A stretch of DNA of 47,215 nucleotides from a bacterium (GTDB lineage: Bacteria > Patescibacteriota > UBA1384 > 2-12-FULL-50-11). Made by a program: the position numbers and the translations under genes. The stretch spans positions 205,932-253,146 of the forward strand of contig JAJTYJ010000001.1 in NCBI GenBank assembly GCA_021463485.1, given 5' to 3'. The notes beneath the pieces are model-generated. The model was not told the origin of the DNA. It saw only the letters and a list, made by a program, of their open reading frames with translations, and searched no databases. Positions 7,798 through 19,889 of the stretch are shown here, piece after piece. How positions within the stretch are numbered: position 1 is the stretch's first letter; the number at the start of each line of letters is the position of its first letter.

Positions 7798-9156
7798 TTA
7801 TTCATATAGTAGGTTTAGTATATTTTTTATATCTTTTTCTACAGTAGGATCCTTCTTTTTTTGGTTCTCAATCTTTGTCACCCCATACATAATCGTTGTG
7901 TGATCCTTTCCTCCTAATATTTCTCCAATTTGTGGGAACGACTGTCGGAGTTTATCTCGTAAAAAATACATAATTAACTGTCTCGGGTAGACTAGCTCTT
8001 TAATTCTCTTACTACCAAGCAGATCGCTTTCCTCTAAACTGAAATACGTAGCCACGACTCGCAAAACCTTCTTACTTGAAATTACTCCACTAGGTTGTTG
8101 TAGTAAGTCTTTTAAAACACGTTGGGCAAACTCTCTTGTGATTTCCTCGCCCTCAACCAACGAAGCGGTATGAAGCTTAATTAACGACCCCTCGAGTTCG
8201 CGAACATTAGAAGTGATAGTGTTAGCGATATACTCTAATACTTCCTGAGGAATAGTAATACCCTTTTCTTCCGCTTTCGACTGCAAGATAGCAGTACGAG
8301 TTTCAAAGTTTGGCGACTGGATATCAGCAATCATTCCCCAACCGAATCTTGAGATTAGGCGGTCTTCTAGCTCAGTCATCTCTTTTGGTACGCGGTCGGA
8401 AGTTAGGACGATCTGACGATTAGCTTGGTGTAGGATGTTAAATGTGTGAAAAAACTCCTCTTGGGTCCCCTCTTTGTTGGCTAAAAACTGAATATCGTCG
8501 ATTAACAACACATCAGCGGTCCGGTACTTACGCTTAAATTCGGTGATGGTCTTTGTTTGTAGGGCGTTAATAAATTCTCCTGTGAATGTCTCACATGAAA
8601 TGTAGATAATTTTCTTTTTTGGGGAGCTCTCTAATACCCTATTGCCGATGGCATGCATAAGATGTGTCTTACCTAGTCCCACGCCGCCGTAGATAAACAG
8701 CGGGTTATACGCCTGACCGAGTTTCTCGGCTACAGCTTGGGAGGCAGCGAAGGCGAGGCGATTGTTATTGCCCACAATAAAATTCTCAAATGTATACCGA
8801 GAGTTAAAAGAAGGTATTTCCACGTTTCTTTTAGCTACGCCTTCAGTTTCAGATTGTTCTACCTCTAATTGATTTGAAAGCAGCGGTAATTCGGTATAGT
8901 CCTTTTTTGGCTCTGGTTCTACTAAAACTAATTCAATATTCTCGATCTCTGGGTGGTGTTGCTGTAGCGCCAAGAGAAGTTGCTTTGTTGCGTTCTTCTC
9001 GATCCAGCTTTTTGCATAATGATTTGGGATTGAGATACGCGCCAAGTTATTTTTTAGCTCAAGTAGGTCAGTTGGTTTGATCCAGGTAATAAAGTTCGGT
9101 CGGCTCGTGGTAGCCTCAAGGGTGTCTAAAACCTGTTTCCACAAAATACTCGACAT
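7798..9156 (-). CDS. dnaA: Chromosomal replication initiator DnaA
   Basis: YTFENFIVG, YNPLFIYGGVGLGKTHL, LLIDDIQF, QEEFFHTFN, NVRELEG and GGKDHTT motifs. Confidence 0.99.
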   Translation of the reverse strand: MSSILWKQVLDTLEATTSRPNFITWIKPTDLLELKNNLARISIPNHYAKSWIEKNATKQLLLALQQHHPEIENIELVLVEPEPKKDYTELPLLSNQLEVEQSETEGVAKRNVEIPSFNSRYTFENFIVGNNNRLAFAASQAVAEKLGQAYNPLFIYGGVGLGKTHLMHAIGNRVLESSPKKKIIYISCETFTGEFINALQTKTITEFKRKYRTADVLLIDDIQFLANKEGTQEEFFHTFNILHQANRQIVLTSDRVPKEMTELEDRLISRFGWGMIADIQSPNFETRTAILQSKAEEKGITIPQEVLEYIANTITSNVRELEGSLIKLHTASLVEGEEITREFAQRVLKDLLQQPSGVISSKKVLRVVATYFSLEESDLLGSKRIKELVYPRQLIMYFLRDKLRQSFPQIGEILGGKDHTTIMYGVTKIENQKKKDPTVEKDIKNILNLLYE

Positions 9157-9185
9157 CTGTGGGTAAAATACAGGAGTTTTCCACA
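9135..9185. promoter_or_regulatory. DnaA box cluster at the dnaA start (autoregulation, or second half of a bipartite oriC)
   Basis: GTTTCCACA 9135-9143, TGTGGGTAA 9158-9166, TTTTCCACA 9177-9185. Confidence 0.75.
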
Positions 9186-9215
9186 GGGGTCAATCAGAAG
9201 TACGGGAGTTAATCG

Positions 9216-9244
9216 TTGCTTTACCTCTCGAGAAATAGTACAAT
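9216..9244 (+). promoter_or_regulatory. Sigma-70 promoter for rpmH-rnpA-yidD-yidC
   Basis: TTGCTT (9216-9221), 17-bp spacer, TACAAT (9239-9244). Confidence 0.65.
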
Positions 9245-9274
9245 TACAGAACAATAATAATCGAATAAAATCAA

Positions 9275-9394
9275 ATGAAGCGGACATATCAAGGAAATAA
9301 GCGCAAACGCAATAAGGTTCACGGTTTTCGTGGTCGATCTGTTGTAGTACTCCAGCGCCGTCGCCGCAAAGGGCGCACTCGTCTAGCGGTTTGA
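9275..9394 (+). CDS. rpmH: 50S ribosomal protein L34 (39 aa; absent from the ORF track)
   Basis: Manual translation [39 protein letters not shown]; divergent from dnaA and upstream of rnpA. Confidence 0.95.
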
Positions 9395-9404
9395 TAGTGT
9401 CGCC

Positions 9405-9734
9405 ATGCTTAAACGCCAGCACCGCCTGAAAAAACAGGCCGATTTTTTACGCGTCTTTAAAGAAGGAAAGCGTCGTAACTACGAATCGATTAATGTTACT
9501 CAACTAACCAACTCTTTAGGCGTTCCTAGGTTTGCAGTAGTTGTTTCTAAAAAAGTCAGTAAAAAGGCGGTTGTTCGCAATAAAATTCGACGAAGTGTTT
9601 TAGCGATCCTTGAGCCCTATCAACAACTACCACTTAGTGAAGACGTTGTGATAACCATTACTCGACTACCAGACGATCAATCCAGCCCGTATCGATACTT
9701 TCAGCCAATTATTAAACAATGGCGATCGCTGTAG
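9405..9734 (+). CDS. rnpA: Ribonuclease P protein component
   Basis: RLKKQADFLRVFKEG, PRFAVVVSKKV and AVVRNKIRR (RNR motif). Confidence 0.96.
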   Translation: MLKRQHRLKKQADFLRVFKEGKRRNYESINVTQLTNSLGVPRFAVVVSKKVSKKAVVRNKIRRSVLAILEPYQQLPLSEDVVITITRLPDDQSSPYRYFQPIIKQWRSL

Positions 9735-9961
9735 TCTGGTTAATCGAGCTTTATCAGCGGACGCTTTCACCAGATCACGGTCTGTTAAGAATTTTCTTCC
9801 CATCTGGGGCTTGCCGACACCATCCAACTTGCTCTGAGTACACAAAAGAGGCGGTAAAACGCTACGGGCCGTACCAAGGATTAACGCTAGGGCTGAGGCG
9901 AGTGTCGCGATGTCACCCATTCAATCCGGGCGGATTTGACCCCGTACCCGAGAAAAAGTAA
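9719..9961 (+). CDS. yidD: Membrane protein insertion efficiency factor YidD
   Basis: YQRTLSP, CRHHPTCSEY and RCHPFNPGGFDPVP motifs. Confidence 0.96.
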   Translation: MAIAVVWLIELYQRTLSPDHGLLRIFFPSGACRHHPTCSEYTKEAVKRYGPYQGLTLGLRRVSRCHPFNPGGFDPVPEKK

Positions 9962-9972
9962 TATTCCACCAT

Positions 9973-10722
9973 ATGGTTAAAGAGTTCTTCAAGACGATTC
10001 TGTACGAACCGTTATACAACCTGCTCATCTTTTTCGCCTGGCTCGTGCCGGGGCATAGTATCGGTTGGGCGATAATTCTACTAACAATTGTCGTAAAAAT
10101 TCTACTTTGGGTACCGTCAGTTAAGGGTATCCGTGCGCCGCTACAAATGCGGGTTCATCAGCCAGAATTGAAGAAGATTCAAGAGCGATATAAAGACGAC
10201 CGAACAATGCAAAGCCAGGCGTTAATGGCCTATTACAAAGAACACGGCGTAAACCCGCTCGCGGGCTGCCTACCGCTCTTAATCCAGTTGCCGGTTATCC
10301 TTATCCTTTACAACGTGTTTGTGGCTGGCTTGAAGGACATTCGACCAGATATCATCTACTCATTTACGCCGCATCTCGATACTATTAACACCCACTTTCT
10401 CGGTTTAGATCTCTCCAAACCAGATCGGATTTTTCTCCCATTAATAATCGCCGCCCTACAGTTCTTCCAGGCCCGCCATATGCAAAAGATAAACCCACCG
10501 ATGTCGAACGATCCGAAAGATCCGATGGTGATAATCTCGAAGCAGTCGGTTTTTCTCTTCCCGTTAATGACGTATTTCTTCGCGCTTGGCTTCCCGGCAG
10601 GCGTCTCTCTCTATTGGGGAACATCAACGCTGTTCCAATTACTCCAACAGCTCTATATCCAGAAAACCTTTGTTACTCCAAAGCCGAAAGTGGCGGTGAC
10701 AGTTCGTTCAAAAAAGAAGTAA
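9973..10722 (+). CDS. yidC: YidC/Oxa1 membrane protein insertase (short form)
   Basis: GWAIILLTIVVK, QPELKKIQERYK, NPLAGCLPLLIQLP and PAGVSLYW motifs; no periplasmic domain. Confidence 0.95.
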   Translation: MVKEFFKTILYEPLYNLLIFFAWLVPGHSIGWAIILLTIVVKILLWVPSVKGIRAPLQMRVHQPELKKIQERYKDDRTMQSQALMAYYKEHGVNPLAGCLPLLIQLPVILILYNVFVAGLKDIRPDIIYSFTPHLDTINTHFLGLDLSKPDRIFLPLIIAALQFFQARHMQKINPPMSNDPKDPMVIISKQSVFLFPLMTYFFALGFPAGVSLYWGTSTLFQLLQQLYIQKTFVTPKPKVAVTVRSKKK

Positions 10723-10725
10723 TTT

Positions 10726-10824
10726 GCGCGCTCGACAGGAATCTTCACAAGCTCGGTTCCTGCCAAGCTCCCCACAAAAATATCCCCTATTAGGGGGATA
10801 TTTTATAGCGCTCGACAGGAATCG
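10726..10824 (-). repeat. Two extra copies of the tRNA-Arg 3' end (T-loop to acceptor stem)
   Basis: GCGCTCGACAGGAATC (+ strand) at 10728-10743 and 10808-10823 is identical to 10866-10881 of the tRNA; the matches extend to 10726 and 10824. Confidence 0.95.
10776..10804. terminator. Terminator-like hairpin inside the spacer between the tRNA 3' repeats
   Basis: AAAATATCCCC-TATTAG-GGGGATATTTT inverted repeat between convergent yidC and tRNA-Arg. Confidence 0.6.
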
Positions 10825-10864
10825 CCCCAATGGGCGTTCCTCCCTTGTGCACTCATTACATGCG

Positions 10865-10937
10865 CGCGCTCGACAGGAATCGAACCTGTGGCCTCCCGGA
10901 CCGCAACCGGACGCTCTATCCGCTGAGCTACGAGCGC
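10865..10937 (-). tRNA. tRNA-Arg (anticodon GCG), no encoded CCA
   Basis: Reverse complement GCGCTCG TA GCTC AGCGGATA GAGC G TCCGG TTGCGGT CCGGG AGGCC ACAGG TTCGATT CCTGT CGAGCGC G folds as a full cloverleaf. Confidence 0.95.
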
Positions 10938-10987
10938 TGAAAACTGGTTAACACCAGTAGCTCAAAGGACAACGGCGTTAGCCGGTG

Positions 10988-11084
10988 ATCCGCTGAGCTA
11001 CGAGCGCATGAGTGAAGTAATGAACGAATGCGTTAGTAGCTTGGGCGGAACGAATATTTGCAGTATCCGCTGAGCTACGAGCGC
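10988..11084 (-). repeat. Two extra copies of the tRNA-Arg 5' end (acceptor stem to D-loop)
   Basis: ATCCGCTGAGCTACGAGCGC (+ strand) at 10988-11007 and 11065-11084 is identical to 10918-10937. Confidence 0.95.
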
Positions 11085-11093
11085 AATACGGAA

Positions 11094-11122
11094 ATTTTAT
11101 CTAAACTTTACTGATTAGTAAA
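11094..11122 (-). promoter_or_regulatory. Sigma-70 promoter immediately upstream of the outermost tRNA-Arg 5' repeat
   Basis: Minus strand TTTACT (11122-11117), 17 bp, TAAAAT (11099-11094), 9 nt before the repeat start at 11084. Confidence 0.65.
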
Positions 11123-11494
11123 TCAGTTACTAGCCGGTTCCATCTGGTTGTTAAGTAGGTATTGTCTTGTAGGCACTAGGGAATTTCTGTTTTGAGGCGG
11201 AGTTTTATATAAATATTCTTCATTATCTGTGGTTAGAATATAAAGCCAGTCGTAGCTATTTGGTGTTGGATACTTAACTACATAACCCTTAGAATTTGAA
11301 TGAATTCTTCTTAGAGCAACTTGCCTTGAACCACAATAACGAACTTGCACCCTTTTTATACTTCCCAGGTAATCAACGGCTAGGTCGTACGACGCAGACT
11401 CGGTTAACGGAATTAATGCGTCGTAACCAAGCCTTGTGAAGGTAGCTATAGCCTGTGCTACAGCATAATCACCTTTCCGCTGCGTTGTTCTCAT
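11123..11494 (-). CDS. Free-standing PD-(D/E)XK nuclease of the group I intron-associated type (PDDEXK_5-like)
   Basis: KGDYAVAQAIATFTRLGYDALIPLTESASYDLAVD...KRVQVRY...Y....YDWLYI fits the family pattern G..aE......GY.V..P......YDL.......RVQVK. Confidence 0.8.
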   Translation of the reverse strand: MRTTQRKGDYAVAQAIATFTRLGYDALIPLTESASYDLAVDYLGSIKRVQVRYCGSRQVALRRIHSNSKGYVVKYPTPNSYDWLYILTTDNEEYLYKTPPQNRNSLVPTRQYLLNNQMEPASN

Positions 11495-11537
11495 AAAGTC
11501 ATCCTAACAGTAGGGGATACTGTTTCCAATATATTTG

Positions 11538-11624
11538 CGGAGATGGTAGGATTCGAACCCACGAGGAGCTTTCACCCCTAACGCTTTTCAAGAGCGCCGC
11601 CTTAAGCCGCTCGGCCACATCTCC
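11538..11624 (-). tRNA. tRNA-Ser (anticodon TGA)
   Basis: GGAGATG/CATCTCC acceptor stem, anticodon arm GCGCT-CTTGAAA-AGCGT, long variable arm, GTTCGAATC T-loop. Confidence 0.96.
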
Positions 11625-11686: not shown

Positions 11687-12370
11687 TTAATCGTGAGCAA
11701 GAGTGATCGCCCAAATGCGTTTTGCGCCCGCCTTTCTTAACGGTATTACTACAGCTGATAAAGTACTCCCGGTGGTAATAACGTCATCGCAAAGCACAAT
11801 CTCCTCAGGCGGCTTATCAACAACTTTAAACGCATTCTTTAAGTTGGTCCTCCGTTCAGCTTTTGTTGAAGTTGCCTGAGCAGCGGTCTCTCTTATTTTC
11901 TTAATTCCCAGAAATACCCTCTCGTTGGCAAGTAGTCTAGTAATAATCTCCGACTGGTTGTACCCACGCTTTGCGGTTCGTTGCTTGGTTTGTGGAATGT
12001 AAGCGTAATACCAATCTCCTTCTGGCAGTCGCCGGACTATCTCTTCGTACAGCGCAGCTGACAGGCAGGTAATAGCGTCCCACCCGCCGTCGTACTTAGC
12101 AGTGCTTAACGCCTGTTTTATTAACGGGTTCTGGTAATCGAACGGCGCGATAACGCCGTCTAGTTGGGTTGATTTGCGGCACTTATGGCACAGCCCGCCG
12201 ATCGCTGCTTTTTTACATATCGCGCAGCGACGATCGCTCATAATCTCAAGCTGTTTTAGGCACTGCGGGCAGATCCAGTCTGATTCCGAGCCACAGCCCA
12301 GACAATAAACAGGAAATAGTAAACGCTTAAACCAATCGAGTACCGACCGACTTTGACGAGCTCTTAGCAT
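11687..12370 (-). CDS. comF: ComF family competence protein (double zinc ribbon plus PRTase domain)
   Basis: Four CxxC pairs, RGYNQS, RRTNLKNAF and DDVITTGST motifs. Confidence 0.9.
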   Translation of the reverse strand: MLRARQSRSVLDWFKRLLFPVYCLGCGSESDWICPQCLKQLEIMSDRRCAICKKAAIGGLCHKCRKSTQLDGVIAPFDYQNPLIKQALSTAKYDGGWDAITCLSAALYEEIVRRLPEGDWYYAYIPQTKQRTAKRGYNQSEIITRLLANERVFLGIKKIRETAAQATSTKAERRTNLKNAFKVVDKPPEEIVLCDDVITTGSTLSAVVIPLRKAGAKRIWAITLAHD

Positions 12371-18175: not shown

Positions 18176-18262
18176 GGAAGAGTGCCGGAGTGGTTGAACG
18201 GGACAGTCTCGAAAACTGTTGGCTGCGCAAGTGGCTCGTGAGTTCGAATCTCACCTCTTCCG
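18176..18262 (+). tRNA. tRNA-Ser (anticodon CGA)
   Basis: GGAAGAG/CTCTTCC acceptor stem, anticodon arm ACAGT-CTCGAAA-ACTGT, long variable arm, GTTCGAATC T-loop. Confidence 0.96.
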
Positions 18263-18322
18263 CGAAAAGTTCGACGACGAAAAAGCGAATGAGGCGCTGA
18301 AATTCGCCGAAGGTGAATGAAG

Positions 18323-18336
18323 ATCTCACCCCTTCC
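18323..18336 (+). repeat. Degenerate copy of the tRNA-Ser(CGA) 3' end
   Basis: ATCTCACCCCTTCC versus ATCTCACCTCTTCC at 18248-18261 (13/14 identical). Confidence 0.7.
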
Positions 18337-18342
18337 TCAGTT

Positions 18343-19743: not shown

Positions 19744-19761
19744 CTGGCGGAGAGGCAGGGA
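19744..19761 (-). repeat. Exact 18-bp copy of the tRNA-Ser(GCT) 3' end, including CCA
   Basis: CTGGCGGAGAGGCAGGGA at 19744-19761 and 19797-19814. Confidence 0.9.
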
Positions 19762-19797
19762 AGACGGTCCCCTAAATCCCTACCTCGTCATAAGTTC

Positions 19798-19889
19798 TGG
19801 CGGAGAGGCAGGGATTCGAACCCTGGGTCCATCTTTCGACAGACAACTCATTAGCAGTGAGCTCCATTCGACCACTCTGGCACCTCTCC
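19798..19889 (-). tRNA. tRNA-Ser (anticodon GCT), CCA encoded
   Basis: GGAGAGG/CCTCTCC acceptor stem, anticodon arm GCTCA-CTGCTAA-TGAGT, long variable arm, ends GCCA. Confidence 0.96.

Follow-up and report, generated by a model that had tools for sequence, protein, structure and literature searches.

The window analysed here, a stretch of 47,215 nucleotides from a 722-kb patescibacterial genome (G000), contains an intact tRNA-Arg(GCG) gene flanked on both sides by exact copies of its own ends. What are these copies, and how did the DNA between them arrive? On the minus strand, four small non-coding inserts surround the gene, two on its 5' side and two on its 3' side (Table 1). A sequence-only reading had described this array, and genome-wide searches bear it out: the 20-mer of the 5' end has three exact occurrences, all at the array, and the 16-mer of the 3' end also has three, compared with none for the reversed control of either, which places the copies far beyond chance. 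The 5' copies break off in the D loop after position 20/21 and the 3' copies in the T loop at 56/57, as that reading had proposed. These break points are the centres of the arm palindromes. No open reading frame fits in the four spacers (39–64 nt), and Rfam searches at permissive thresholds returned only tRNA in the window region and at 15 other module loci. A split, permuted or intron-bearing tRNA would leave no intact gene, and the tRNA-Arg here is full-length (66.1 bits).

On balance, we favour the reading that four miniature insertion modules, none of them coding, are stacked around a single working tRNA-Arg(GCG), with the gene end regenerated. On one side of each module is the intact gene and on the other a duplicate of that gene's terminal 17–21 bp. 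The duplicate begins in the D loop or the T loop, reaches the gene end and often runs 1–4 nt further. Entry is next to the intact copy, which makes the innermost modules the youngest. Every insertion restores the target, so the site remains open and modules accumulate.

Table 1. Features of the tRNA-Arg array and its flanks, by position in the window.
Feature	Position	Strand	Length	Evidence or comment
yidC (60-kDa inner membrane insertase), convergent flank of array	9973-10722	+		Pfam PF02096 E=6e-50
Outer 3' end copy, exact, tRNA positions 57-74	10726-10743	-		
Spacer 4, body of outer 3' unit	10744-10807	-	64 nt	
Inner 3' end copy, exact, tRNA positions 56-72	10808-10824	-		
Spacer 3, body of inner 3' unit	10825-10863	-	39 nt	
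tRNA-Arg(GCG), intact	10864-10937	-		ARAGORN; Rfam tRNA 66.1 bits over full model; identical in G001
Spacer 2, body of inner 5' unit ('type A')	10938-10987	-	50 nt	
Inner 5' end copy, exact, tRNA positions 1-20	10988-11007	-		
Spacer 1, body of outer 5' unit ('type B')	11008-11063	-	56 nt	
Outer 5' end copy, exact, tRNA positions 1-21	11064-11084	-		
Sigma-70-like promoter match TTTACT-17-TAAAAT, tail of endonuclease insertion	11094-11122	-		9/12 matches
PD-(D/E)XK homing-endonuclease-like ORF, between tRNA-Ser and array	11123-11494	-	123 aa	Pfam PF11645 E=4e-14; PDB 2OST E=5e-5
tRNA-Ser(TGA), conserved upstream partner of tRNA-Arg(GCG)	11537-11624	-		ARAGORN; Rfam

The sequence-only reading had called for the assembly to be confirmed. 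A contig from the probable source run covers the whole stretch with 0 differences and is not independent evidence. A 479-nt contig from an independent study (X5) matches positions 10502–10871 with two differences and includes both 3' copies, both 3' spacers and the 3' end of tRNA-Arg; the assembly thus has independent support.

We compared all 685 kb (44 tRNAs) of the closest relative, G001, which is ~91% identical to this genome. G001 lacks exactly two of the units, the inner ones: 70 nt on the 5' side and 58 nt on the 3' side. Spacer 1 is identical in G001 at 55 of 56 nt. The outer 3' spacer is only ~55% identical to its G001 counterpart, whereas identity is 98–100% across the tRNA and the ~90 nt of flank immediately downstream, which indicates cassette replacement. 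The two genomes have ten modules in common, nine of them 84–100% identical and the tenth being the replaced outer Arg 3' spacer; at least seven modules are private to G000 and four to G001. Empty sites are precise, with flanks more than 95% identical. One end copy has decayed (tRNA-Ala in G001, two mismatches).

Contigs of other metagenomes contain at least four allelic forms of the array. In one contig the tRNA 3' end runs directly into the yidC flank; 138 nt are skipped, and 18 nt are common to both sides of the joint. Contigs from X7 and X19 skip 70 nt and so lack the inner 5' unit, and an X19 contig lacks the inner 3' unit. One contig has the outer 3' unit and lacks the inner one, and another has 83 other letters where the 5' units stand. 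Filled and precisely empty alleles occur among close relatives, with the target tRNA kept functional, and modules are precisely absent or replaced between strains. These allele differences, in G001 and in metagenomes, indicate that units come and go and that the newest are innermost. The sequence-only reading had suspected repeated tiny insertions that regenerate the gene and had proposed comparing orthologous loci; gain, loss or replacement of units between strains is what that comparison reveals, in G001 by the precise absence of two inner units and in other strains by the absence of both 3' units or by different 5' content. Counting against our reading, presence or absence at any single site fits gain or precise loss alike. 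A single 'Russian-doll' event adding both inner units was rejected as a general rule, since some relatives have units on the 5' side alone and others on the 3' side alone. A former resident tRNA was likewise rejected as the source of the inner shell, whose anticodon-arm-like hairpin is unrelated to the anticodon arm of tRNA-Arg.

The tRNA-Ser/tRNA-Arg pair is present at the loci of 12 relatives. The outermost 5' copy in G001 lies 18 nt after tRNA-Ser, and in module-free relatives tRNA-Arg itself lies 18–26 nt after tRNA-Ser; this shared placement marks the outermost 5' copy as the old gene start. The sequence-only reading had drawn the same conclusion from the promoter 9 nt from that copy. The conclusion stands but the argument does not, because the promoter-like site lies in the endonuclease-gene tail, arrived with the endonuclease insertion and belongs to a region missing in G001; it therefore marks no ancestral tRNA promoter. 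The endonuclease gene itself is absent from G001 and from an X19 contig. The match is also weak (three promoter-like sites found, 2.1 expected in shuffles). The ancestral unit is co-transcription with tRNA-Ser.

Similar arrangements recur across the genome and the lineage, where the sequence-only reading had suggested scanning for them. We identified 3' self-copies (at most 3 mismatches) 27–160 nt downstream of ~14 of the 47 tRNA genes; a control with another tRNA's end was positive in 0 of 188 tests. At least four tRNA genes (Leu-TAG, Ala-TGC, Ile-GAT and Arg) have 5' copies. The inserts measure uniformly 27–160 nt at about 17 tRNAs, and about a third of the tRNA genes in a 0.7-Mb genome are affected. 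Closely spaced 5' repeats turned up in 8 of 8 genomes from the family, compared with 0 of 93 from elsewhere in the class. Upstream of tRNA-Arg, single 5' units stand in G003 and G014 and two in G013, and G006 and G009 have degenerate 5' copies; the G003 unit is similar to the type B outer 5' unit. Other tRNA-Arg isoacceptors carry units in G007, G002, G004, G005, G006 and G009.

The direct repeats point to duplication at the DNA level. On the 3' side they measure 17.7 ± 1.5 nt (n = 17, range 15–22 nt), with correlated start and end positions (r = 0.49, permutation p = 0.026), a modest fixed-length signal; on the 5' side they measure 15–21 nt. They usually extend 1–4 nt beyond the tRNA. Their length, the start/end correlation and this run-on are the basis of the argument. 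An origin from mature tRNA or tRNA fragments through reverse transcription was rejected, because the copies continue 1–4 nt into flank that is not CCA. Two details count against our reading: the fixed-length signal is modest, and the distal copy of the inner 3' unit lacks a GC expected from simple target duplication.

Most units are built alike: beside the exact end copy lie a small hairpin core and an inverted, imperfect copy of that same arm of the tRNA. Module bodies are rich in hairpins; those named in the sequence-only reading are present, and each unit by itself is predicted to be more stable than its shuffled versions (z = -3.8, -5.1, -2.8 and -4.1). Spacer 1 contains a small hairpin (AACG-CATT-CGTT) and an imperfect inverted copy of tRNA positions 7–19 (11036–11049; score reached by 14 of 500 shuffles). 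Spacer 2 contains hairpin X (10973–10984), an inverted copy of tRNA positions 7–19 (10957–10969) and hairpin 2 (ACTGGT-GTTA-ACCAGT, 10943–10958). In spacer 4, a terminator-like hairpin (about 10777–10804, placed at 10784–10796 by a narrower call) is accompanied by an inverted 23-nt copy of tRNA positions 48–70 (10746–10768; 18 of 23 identical; score reached by 0 of 500 shuffles), which pairs with the direct copy in a 12-bp stem. Spacer 3 has a GCCC-ATTG-GGGC hairpin flanked by AGGAA and by the TTCCT of the inner 3' copy. Its inverted arm copy is not significant (344 of 500 shuffles reach the score), which counts against our reading. The inverted target copy is significant in 9 of 15 3' spacers (score matched by no more than 2 of 500 shuffles).

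The inner 5' unit belongs to a type A family with a covarying hairpin, seen only before tRNA-Arg genes. Hairpin 2 is kept in 11 of 11 type A units, with five compensatory double changes. The type A core motif and the covarying hairpin are not templated by the tRNA and occur in at least five genera and in metagenomes. Searching 19 genomes with the core motif gave eight matches, six of which are type A units before tRNA-Arg (reversed control, four matches). In metagenomes, 7 of 13 matches are such units; one locus has three stacked units and another a two-sided array. Long 3' modules of different tRNAs have motifs in common, and the Leu-CAG and Leu-GAG modules have 53 identical nt in common. When all modules were compared with each other by blastn, only this Leu-Leu similarity appeared apart from the end copies, and the weak likeness between modules of different tRNAs counts against our reading. 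Module bodies fall into families common to several genera. A further point against our reading is that the covarying hairpins could equally reflect RNA function.

No obvious resident enzyme accounts for the insertions, which counts against our reading. Cas1, IS110 and TnpB-type genes were found in 0 of 19 family genomes, and a Y1 transposase in one of five genomes (G007). Reverse transcriptase is present in four of five genomes and missing in G001, which has its own modules. Each genome has one tyrosine recombinase (PF00589), far from the locus. This gene is conserved in all five genomes tested and, given its conservation and location elsewhere, is probably Xer-like. No integron integrase or dif-like target was recognised. 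We also looked for element-specific terminal inverted repeats with a matching transposase and found none; what is inverted is in each case copied from the tRNA and not from the element.

Taken as small mobile or horizontally exchanged DNA units rather than remnants of large islands, the modules may have arrived by either of two routes. A non-resident enzyme may insert them and duplicate a target of ~17 bp. Alternatively, they may be copied in by recombination, with the tRNA and the end copy serving as homology arms, a process that tRNA-specific homing endonucleases might sometimes drive. Modules would be lost through recombination between direct repeats. Transcription of the array probably proceeds together with tRNA-Ser and tRNA-Arg, the array supplying a leader and trailer that ordinary tRNA end processing would take off.

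Several known systems resemble these modules in part. Casposons reportedly insert through Cas1, and their duplication is 14–15 bp. Like the modules, casposons and Cas1 spacer integration combine a tRNA 3'-end target, a long duplication, tandem arrays and a repeat-spacer appearance. However, the duplications here are 17–21 bp, both gene ends are used, Cas1 is absent from the family genomes, and the inserts are hairpin modules in families rather than random spacers. The array is also distinct from a CRISPR in that its repeats are tRNA ends of two kinds and its spacers hairpin modules of 39–64 nt. Integron attC sites and the CTX phage attP(+) site, with XerCD, are recombined as folded single strands. 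Such sites may share with the modules an imperfect palindrome with target-mimicking arms, small cassettes in arrays and a host recombinase that suffices; in the modules, by contrast, the arms derive from each tRNA. The mobile tRNA introns reported for Thermoproteales are likewise short and without coding sequence, and they move from loop to loop in many tRNA genes, the D and T regions among them (Fujishima et al., 2010, via PMC10714607). Those introns are spliced from RNA by an archaeal endonuclease, whereas here, in a bacterium, the duplicated end keeps the gene intact.

The neighbouring endonuclease gene suggests another origin, which we regard as rather unlikely: that the modules are cassettes of tRNA-specific homing endonucleases that have lost the nuclease gene, or are non-autonomous riders. 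In a naive tRNA gene, the nuclease would cut one of the palindromic arms (D, anticodon or T), and repair would copy the cassette in by homology with the end copy and the tRNA. Break points at the centres of arm palindromes and the PD-(D/E)XK gene directly upstream of the array are consistent with this origin, and of the 16 PF11645 genes detected across 151 genomes from the class, 13 have a tRNA gene within ~100 nt. One of these genes is a classical group I intron case in tRNA-fMet; I-Ssp6803I (PDB 2OST) has a tRNA-fMet intron context. In 8 of 13 loci with tRNA-Ser and a homing endonuclease gene (the tRNA-Ser(+)-HEG loci), a tRNA-Ser T-arm and 3' piece follow the nuclease stop, forming nuclease-bearing 3' modules. 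In G035, a Ser 5' piece that breaks off in the D loop is followed by a nuclease gene and tRNA-Ser. Finally, the ancestral tRNA-Arg(TCT), intact in G001, is cut at position 33/34 in G000 by a nuclease gene with a foreign replacement tRNA.

Other observations separate the tRNA-Arg modules from these cassettes. A locus survey, which used a six-member subfamily because the alignment of all 11 proteins is too divergent for such a survey, found tRNA-Ser beside the gene in 74 of 80 loci of the window's endonuclease subfamily; the neighbouring nuclease is thus assigned to tRNA-Ser and not to tRNA-Arg. In the alignment, the window's protein reads QVR where most relatives have QVK, so that arginine replaces the motif lysine. 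PF11645 occurs in 3 of 19 family genomes (G000, G007 and G011), whereas modules occur in nearly all. G001 has no PF11645 match yet has four modules of its own. The four tRNA-Arg units contain no ORF, and no nuclease-bearing Arg D-loop or T-loop module was found. The modules nevertheless resemble tRNA-linked homing endonucleases in being selfish DNA bound to tRNA genes and in spreading when repair or recombination copies a filled allele, and nuclease-bearing cassettes with a spare tRNA piece do exist in these genomes. T4 SegB is a free-standing homing endonuclease at tRNA genes (PMC2330249).

It is improbable that the array is a functional RNA device, in which RNase P and 3' processing would release the spacers as small RNAs from nested acceptor-like stems, or in which the copies would act as decoys for tRNA-cutting enzymes or integrases. 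The sequence-only reading had raised these possibilities, and nested stems are indeed predicted for the 312-nt array transcript (z = -7.0; 0 of 100 shuffles as stable), but this nesting follows from the repeats themselves. Good folding of the units on their own and covariation of hairpin 2 would also suit an RNA function. Contigs of the X19 RNA library cover parts of the locus and link spacer 1 with the tRNA, and tRNA-Ser with the outer unit; because DNA may be present in the library, this is a weak indication and no demonstration of transcription, ends or processing. Against an RNA device, units come and go between near-identical strains, end copies decay, spacers are not conserved between different tRNAs and no known RNA family matches.

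Still less probable is an origin as eroded att scars of tyrosine-integrase islands or prophages in the T loop, the 5' part having reversed polarity, deleted to tens of bases. Tyrosine integrases reportedly use classical T-loop att sites in tRNA genes, and tRNA-targeting integrative elements are said to include a reversed-polarity 5' type. The array resembles such islands: a loop-to-gene-end direct repeat, on the 3' side from the T loop to the 3' end, bounds the insert, the gene stays intact, insertions stack in tandem, and each genome does have a tyrosine recombinase gene. However, that gene is the conserved, probably Xer-like one located elsewhere, and a separate attP would be required for every tRNA. 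No integrase or cargo was found at the site in the relatives' loci or metagenome contigs examined. The inserts are uniformly short, at 39–64 nt in the array and 27–160 nt at other tRNAs, and about a third of the tRNA genes of this small genome are affected. The 5' break lies in the D loop, an inverted target copy lies inside the insert, the hairpin cores are conserved and covary, and the type A pattern has 0 matches in viral contigs. In favour of this origin, regeneration on the 5' side is known for other targets such as dusA (PMC4482086).

We consider it highly improbable that the units are de novo repair scars, in which an essential, highly transcribed tRNA gene breaks in its loops and error-prone, template-switching repair copies nearby sequence in direct and inverted form, with only products restoring an intact gene surviving: adjacent inverted and direct local target copies, variable direct-repeat length (15–22 nt) and the lack of a transposase would fit, but the type A core motif with its covarying hairpin, the motifs common to long 3' modules of different tRNAs and the identical Leu-CAG/Leu-GAG stretch would not.

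A more far-reaching proposal is possible but doubtful. The insertion modules may represent an undescribed class of miniature mobile elements of Patescibacteria that insert in the terminal ~17–21 bp of tRNA genes at either end, with an inverted and a direct target copy around a conserved folded core. They would encode no transposase and use no recognisable resident one; host enzymes might act on them as folded single-stranded DNA, and the tRNA-shaped nested shells of a two-sided stack would be cut by RNase P to yield structured small RNAs. We found no description of such modules in the literature covered.

The modules yield partial tRNA matches that can mislead tRNA annotation, and they give tRNA precursors long structured leaders and trailers. 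They also point to an insertion machinery, and their link with tRNA-specific PD-(D/E)XK endonucleases that bring replacement tRNA pieces offers a testable route to it. If the modules are mobile, they would be a fast-evolving strain-level marker, with more than ten gains, losses or replacements between two ~91% identical genomes of the genus. They would then also be selfish DNA that colonises the most conserved, essential genes of extremely reduced genomes at no cost, because the displaced gene piece is duplicated.

The tRNA-Arg(GCG) gene is flanked by four short non-coding units, two on each side, that each contain a spacer and a duplicate of one end of the tRNA. The array has the layout and end copies described in the sequence-only reading, and exact copies of its repeats occur only here. 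The Arg 5'-end 20-mer and the Arg 3'-end 16-mer each occur exactly three times in the 722-kb genome, always within the array (reversed controls, 0). The hairpins named in that reading are present, and all four units fold more stably than shuffled sequences (z = -2.8 to -5.1). Support for the assembly comes from an independent study, one contig of which reaches across the two 3' units plus the 3' end of the tRNA and differs at 2 of 370 nt. A further contig extends through the whole array but derives from the probable source run and is not independent evidence. The dnaA, rnpA and yidC genes are grouped at window positions 7798-10722, and the array thus lies in a likely replication-origin region.

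Features of the tRNA-Arg(GCG) array and its neighbours, in transcript order
Feature	Position	Strand	Remarks
tRNA-Ser(TGA)	11624-11537	minus	first in transcript order
123-aa ORF	11494-11123	minus	between tRNA-Ser and outer 5' copy
Outer 5' copy	11084-11064	minus	tRNA positions 1-21
Outer 5' spacer	between the two 5' copies	minus	56 nt
Inner 5' copy	11007-10988	minus	tRNA positions 1-20
Inner 5' spacer	between inner 5' copy and tRNA-Arg	minus	50 nt
tRNA-Arg(GCG)	10937-10864	minus	intact
Inner 3' spacer	between tRNA-Arg and inner 3' copy	minus	39 nt
Inner 3' copy	10824-10808	minus	tRNA positions 56-72
Outer 3' spacer	between the two 3' copies	minus	64 nt
Outer 3' copy	10743-10726	minus	tRNA positions 57-74
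yidC	beyond outer 3' copy		convergent end

Similar units recur at many other tRNA genes, as a genome-wide check proposed by the sequence-only reading revealed. We identified 3' self-copies (last 16 nt, up to 3 mismatches, no more than 400 nt downstream) at 14 of the 47 tRNA genes that ARAGORN predicts in this genome, compared with 0 of 188 control tests that used another tRNA's end. Seven of the 47 have 5' self-copies (6 of 188 control tests), and at least 2 of the 7 are neighbouring tRNAs; the clear cases are Arg-GCG (two copies), Leu-TAG, Ala-TGC and a nested Ile-GAT. Across 80 Patescibacteria loci, a sample biased because loci were picked for an endonuclease, 14 of 138 tRNAs have a 3' self-copy. 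Within the window, tRNA-Ser(GCT) (19744-19889, minus strand) is followed by a 36-nt hairpin spacer, identical in the closest relative, and an 18-nt copy of its own 3' end. tRNA-Ser(CGA) (18176-18340, plus strand) has a degenerate 3'-end copy 58 nt downstream (3 mismatches in 16).

Among 17 events in this genome and its closest relative, a congener, 3' repeats are 17.7 +/- 1.5 nt long. They begin at canonical positions 56-62, the 3' half of the T loop, and finish at positions 72-79, usually 1-4 nt past the discriminator in non-CCA flank. This extension into the flank excludes an origin of the end copies from mature tRNA. Repeats that start later also tend to end later (r = 0.49, permutation p = 0.026), a modest hint of fixed-length duplication.

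Most spacers have a common anatomy. Of 15 3' spacers examined, nine carry the T-arm/acceptor region of their own tRNA as an inverted copy (score reached by at most 2 of 500 shuffles), and a small hairpin lies between the inverted arm and the end copy. In the outer Arg 3' unit, the inverted copy spans 23 nt (10746-10768, 18 of 23 identical) and pairs with the direct copy over 12 bp, two of them G-U, to form a stem. For the inner Arg 3' unit the inverted copy is not significant (344 of 500 shuffles score as high), and this unit has only a 5-bp arm enclosing a GCCC-ATTG-GGGC hairpin. The 5' units follow a mirrored plan: end copy, hairpin, imperfect complement of tRNA positions 7-19 and second hairpin. 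For the two Arg 5' units, 14 and 5 of 500 shuffles reach the score of the complement. Some long 3' modules carry their own terminator right behind the tRNA (Asp and outer Arg in this genome; Glu-CTC and Gln-CTG in the congener).

Comparison with the full 685 kb of the congener identified ten common modules, nine of which have spacers that are 84-100% identical. Modules at Thr-TGT (53 nt), Asp (128 nt), Leu-CAG (123 nt), Met-CAT (two) and the nested Ile are found only in the window's genome, as are the inner 5' (70 nt) and inner 3' (58 nt) units of the Arg array. Those at Glu-CTC (149 nt), Gln-CTG (144 nt), Ser-GGA and Lys-CTT are found only in the congener. Empty sites are precise, with flanks more than 95% identical. 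The outer Arg 5' spacer is 55/56 identical in the congener. The tenth common module, the outer Arg 3' spacer, is only ~55% identical even though tRNA-Arg and the downstream flank over its first ~90 nt match at 98-100%, indicating that this cassette was exchanged. The Leu(CAG) and Leu(GAG) 3' modules have 53 identical nt in common (contig C1:41711-42016, locus L070), and the absence of the Leu-CAG module from the congener suggests recent copying between neighbouring tRNA genes.

Contigs from other metagenomes extend this variation at the Arg locus. Alleles include one with no 3' unit (the joint skips 10726-10863; flank 97% identical), one in which the inner 5' unit is missing, one with the outer 3' unit alone, which has a GC missing from the window's distal copy, and one in which 83 unrelated letters replace the 5' units. 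The endonuclease gene is present in some alleles and absent in others. Other end copies have decayed (Ala-TGC has 2 mismatches in the congener; Glu-TTC, Phe and Gln-TTG are degenerate), so the copies are not under strong selection.

The order tRNA-Ser(TGA), tRNA-Arg(GCG) is kept in the loci of 12 relatives. Where units are absent, the two genes are 18-26 nt apart (G002, G004), and in the congener the outer 5' copy begins 18 nt after tRNA-Ser. The outermost copy thus marks the old start of the tRNA, as had been proposed from promoter position. The promoter argument itself fails, since that site forms part of the endonuclease insertion's tail and is absent from the congener; the ancestral transcript probably started at the tRNA-Ser promoter. 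The inner units are those that vary between close relatives, implying that new units enter beside the intact gene.

Across G002, G003, G004 (two loci), G005-G007, G009, G013 and G014, we identified 5' units before the genes for all four tRNA-Arg isoacceptors that have this acceptor stem. We sampled 101 genomes of the class for closely spaced Arg 5' 20-mer repeats: all 8 members of this family have them and none of the 93 others does, two apparent exceptions having proved to be separate tRNA genes. Units of the inner 5' family (type A) contain the end copy, a variable-sequence hairpin, GTCCCCTG..C.AC and hairpin 2. All 11 distinct units keep hairpin 2, in which five compensatory double changes are seen. 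The core motif has 8 matches in 19 family genomes, 6 of them type A units (reversed control, 4). Of 13 loci from a metagenome scan, seven have type A units upstream of tRNA-Arg, representing five distinct sequences; they include one with three stacked units and another two-sided array with tRNA-Ser upstream. The type A pattern has 0 matches in viral contigs. Type A and the outer 5' family (type B), both D-loop families, are confined to one bacterial family.

The 123-aa ORF encodes a PD-(D/E)XK homing-endonuclease-like protein (PF11645, E = 4e-14; PDB 2OST, E = 5e-5). In the window's protein and two relatives, R replaces K in the conserved D...QVK motif (alignment A2); this nuclease may be weakened or inactive. 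PF11645 genes are present in 14 of 151 genomes of the class, and 13 of 16 lie within ~100 nt of tRNA genes. In one CPR genome (G073, locus L083) the gene lies inside an intervening sequence in the tRNA-fMet anticodon loop, the classical I-Ssp6803I-like arrangement. Directly after another PD-(D/E)XK gene (G048, locus L086), a tRNA-Tyr(GTA) is apparently split in the anticodon loop by a ~215-nt insert, possibly a group I intron (reverse complement, ~1880-2190).

The window's subfamily has 138 relatives in genome_contigs, and 74 of the 80 loci kept (L097-L176) adjoin tRNA-Ser: just upstream on the same strand (31), 41-93 nt downstream (13) or divergent (30). A conserved hairpin (ACGGT-TGCCCAT-ACCGT type) precedes the start codon and seems to come from the anticodon or variable region of tRNA-Ser. 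In 8 of 13 loci in which the endonuclease gene follows tRNA-Ser, a diverged tRNA-Ser T-arm and 3' piece is found behind the stop codon, which shows that some 3' modules carry a nuclease. At the second PF11645 gene of this genome (C23:5748-6293; L029/L082), an ancestral tRNA-Arg(TCT) is severed at position 33/34, and the endonuclease gene lies between its first 33 nt and a complete foreign tRNA-Arg(TCT) whose acceptor stem differs. The congener has the ancestral gene intact at this position, and downstream of it the two genomes are non-homologous. Cut-and-replace cassettes are thus real in these organisms and could be invoked for the Arg array. However, the window's nuclease is assigned to tRNA-Ser rather than tRNA-Arg, the congener has its own modules yet no PF11645 gene, and none of the Arg D-loop or T-loop units seen carries a nuclease.

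These comparisons establish that a terminal gene segment is duplicated, that new units are innermost and precisely absent from some alleles, that cassettes are exchanged and that unit families are common to several genera. None of 19 family genomes has a Cas1, IS110 or TnpB gene; a Y1 transposase is present in 1 of 5 genomes and one Xer-like recombinase in each. We give most weight to two routes of insertion. In the first, recombination or repair would use the tRNA and its end copy as homology arms, would need no dedicated enzyme and may sometimes be driven by homing nucleases. These bacteria have genes for competence, among them the comF-like ORF at window positions 11687-12370 (phosphoribosyltransferase plus double zinc ribbon). 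In the second, a non-resident enzyme would insert units with a ~17-bp target duplication. Units would be lost through recombination between the 17-21-nt repeats, which would account for the precise empty sites. Nested stems are predicted for the array transcript (z = -7.0) as a consequence of the repeats themselves, and we hypothesize that it could be processed into small RNAs.

Published work covers archaeal tRNA gene fragments that integrating elements leave behind (PMC9897764), mobile introns of archaeal tRNAs together with introns of CPR rRNA genes (PMC10714607), the T4 homing endonuclease SegB at tRNA genes (PMC2330249) and 5'-side regeneration at another integration target, dusA (PMC4482086). 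We found no description of such tRNA-end modules in the literature searched. This locus contributes a two-sided stack, a natural allelic series and a neighbouring nuclease assigned to tRNA-Ser.
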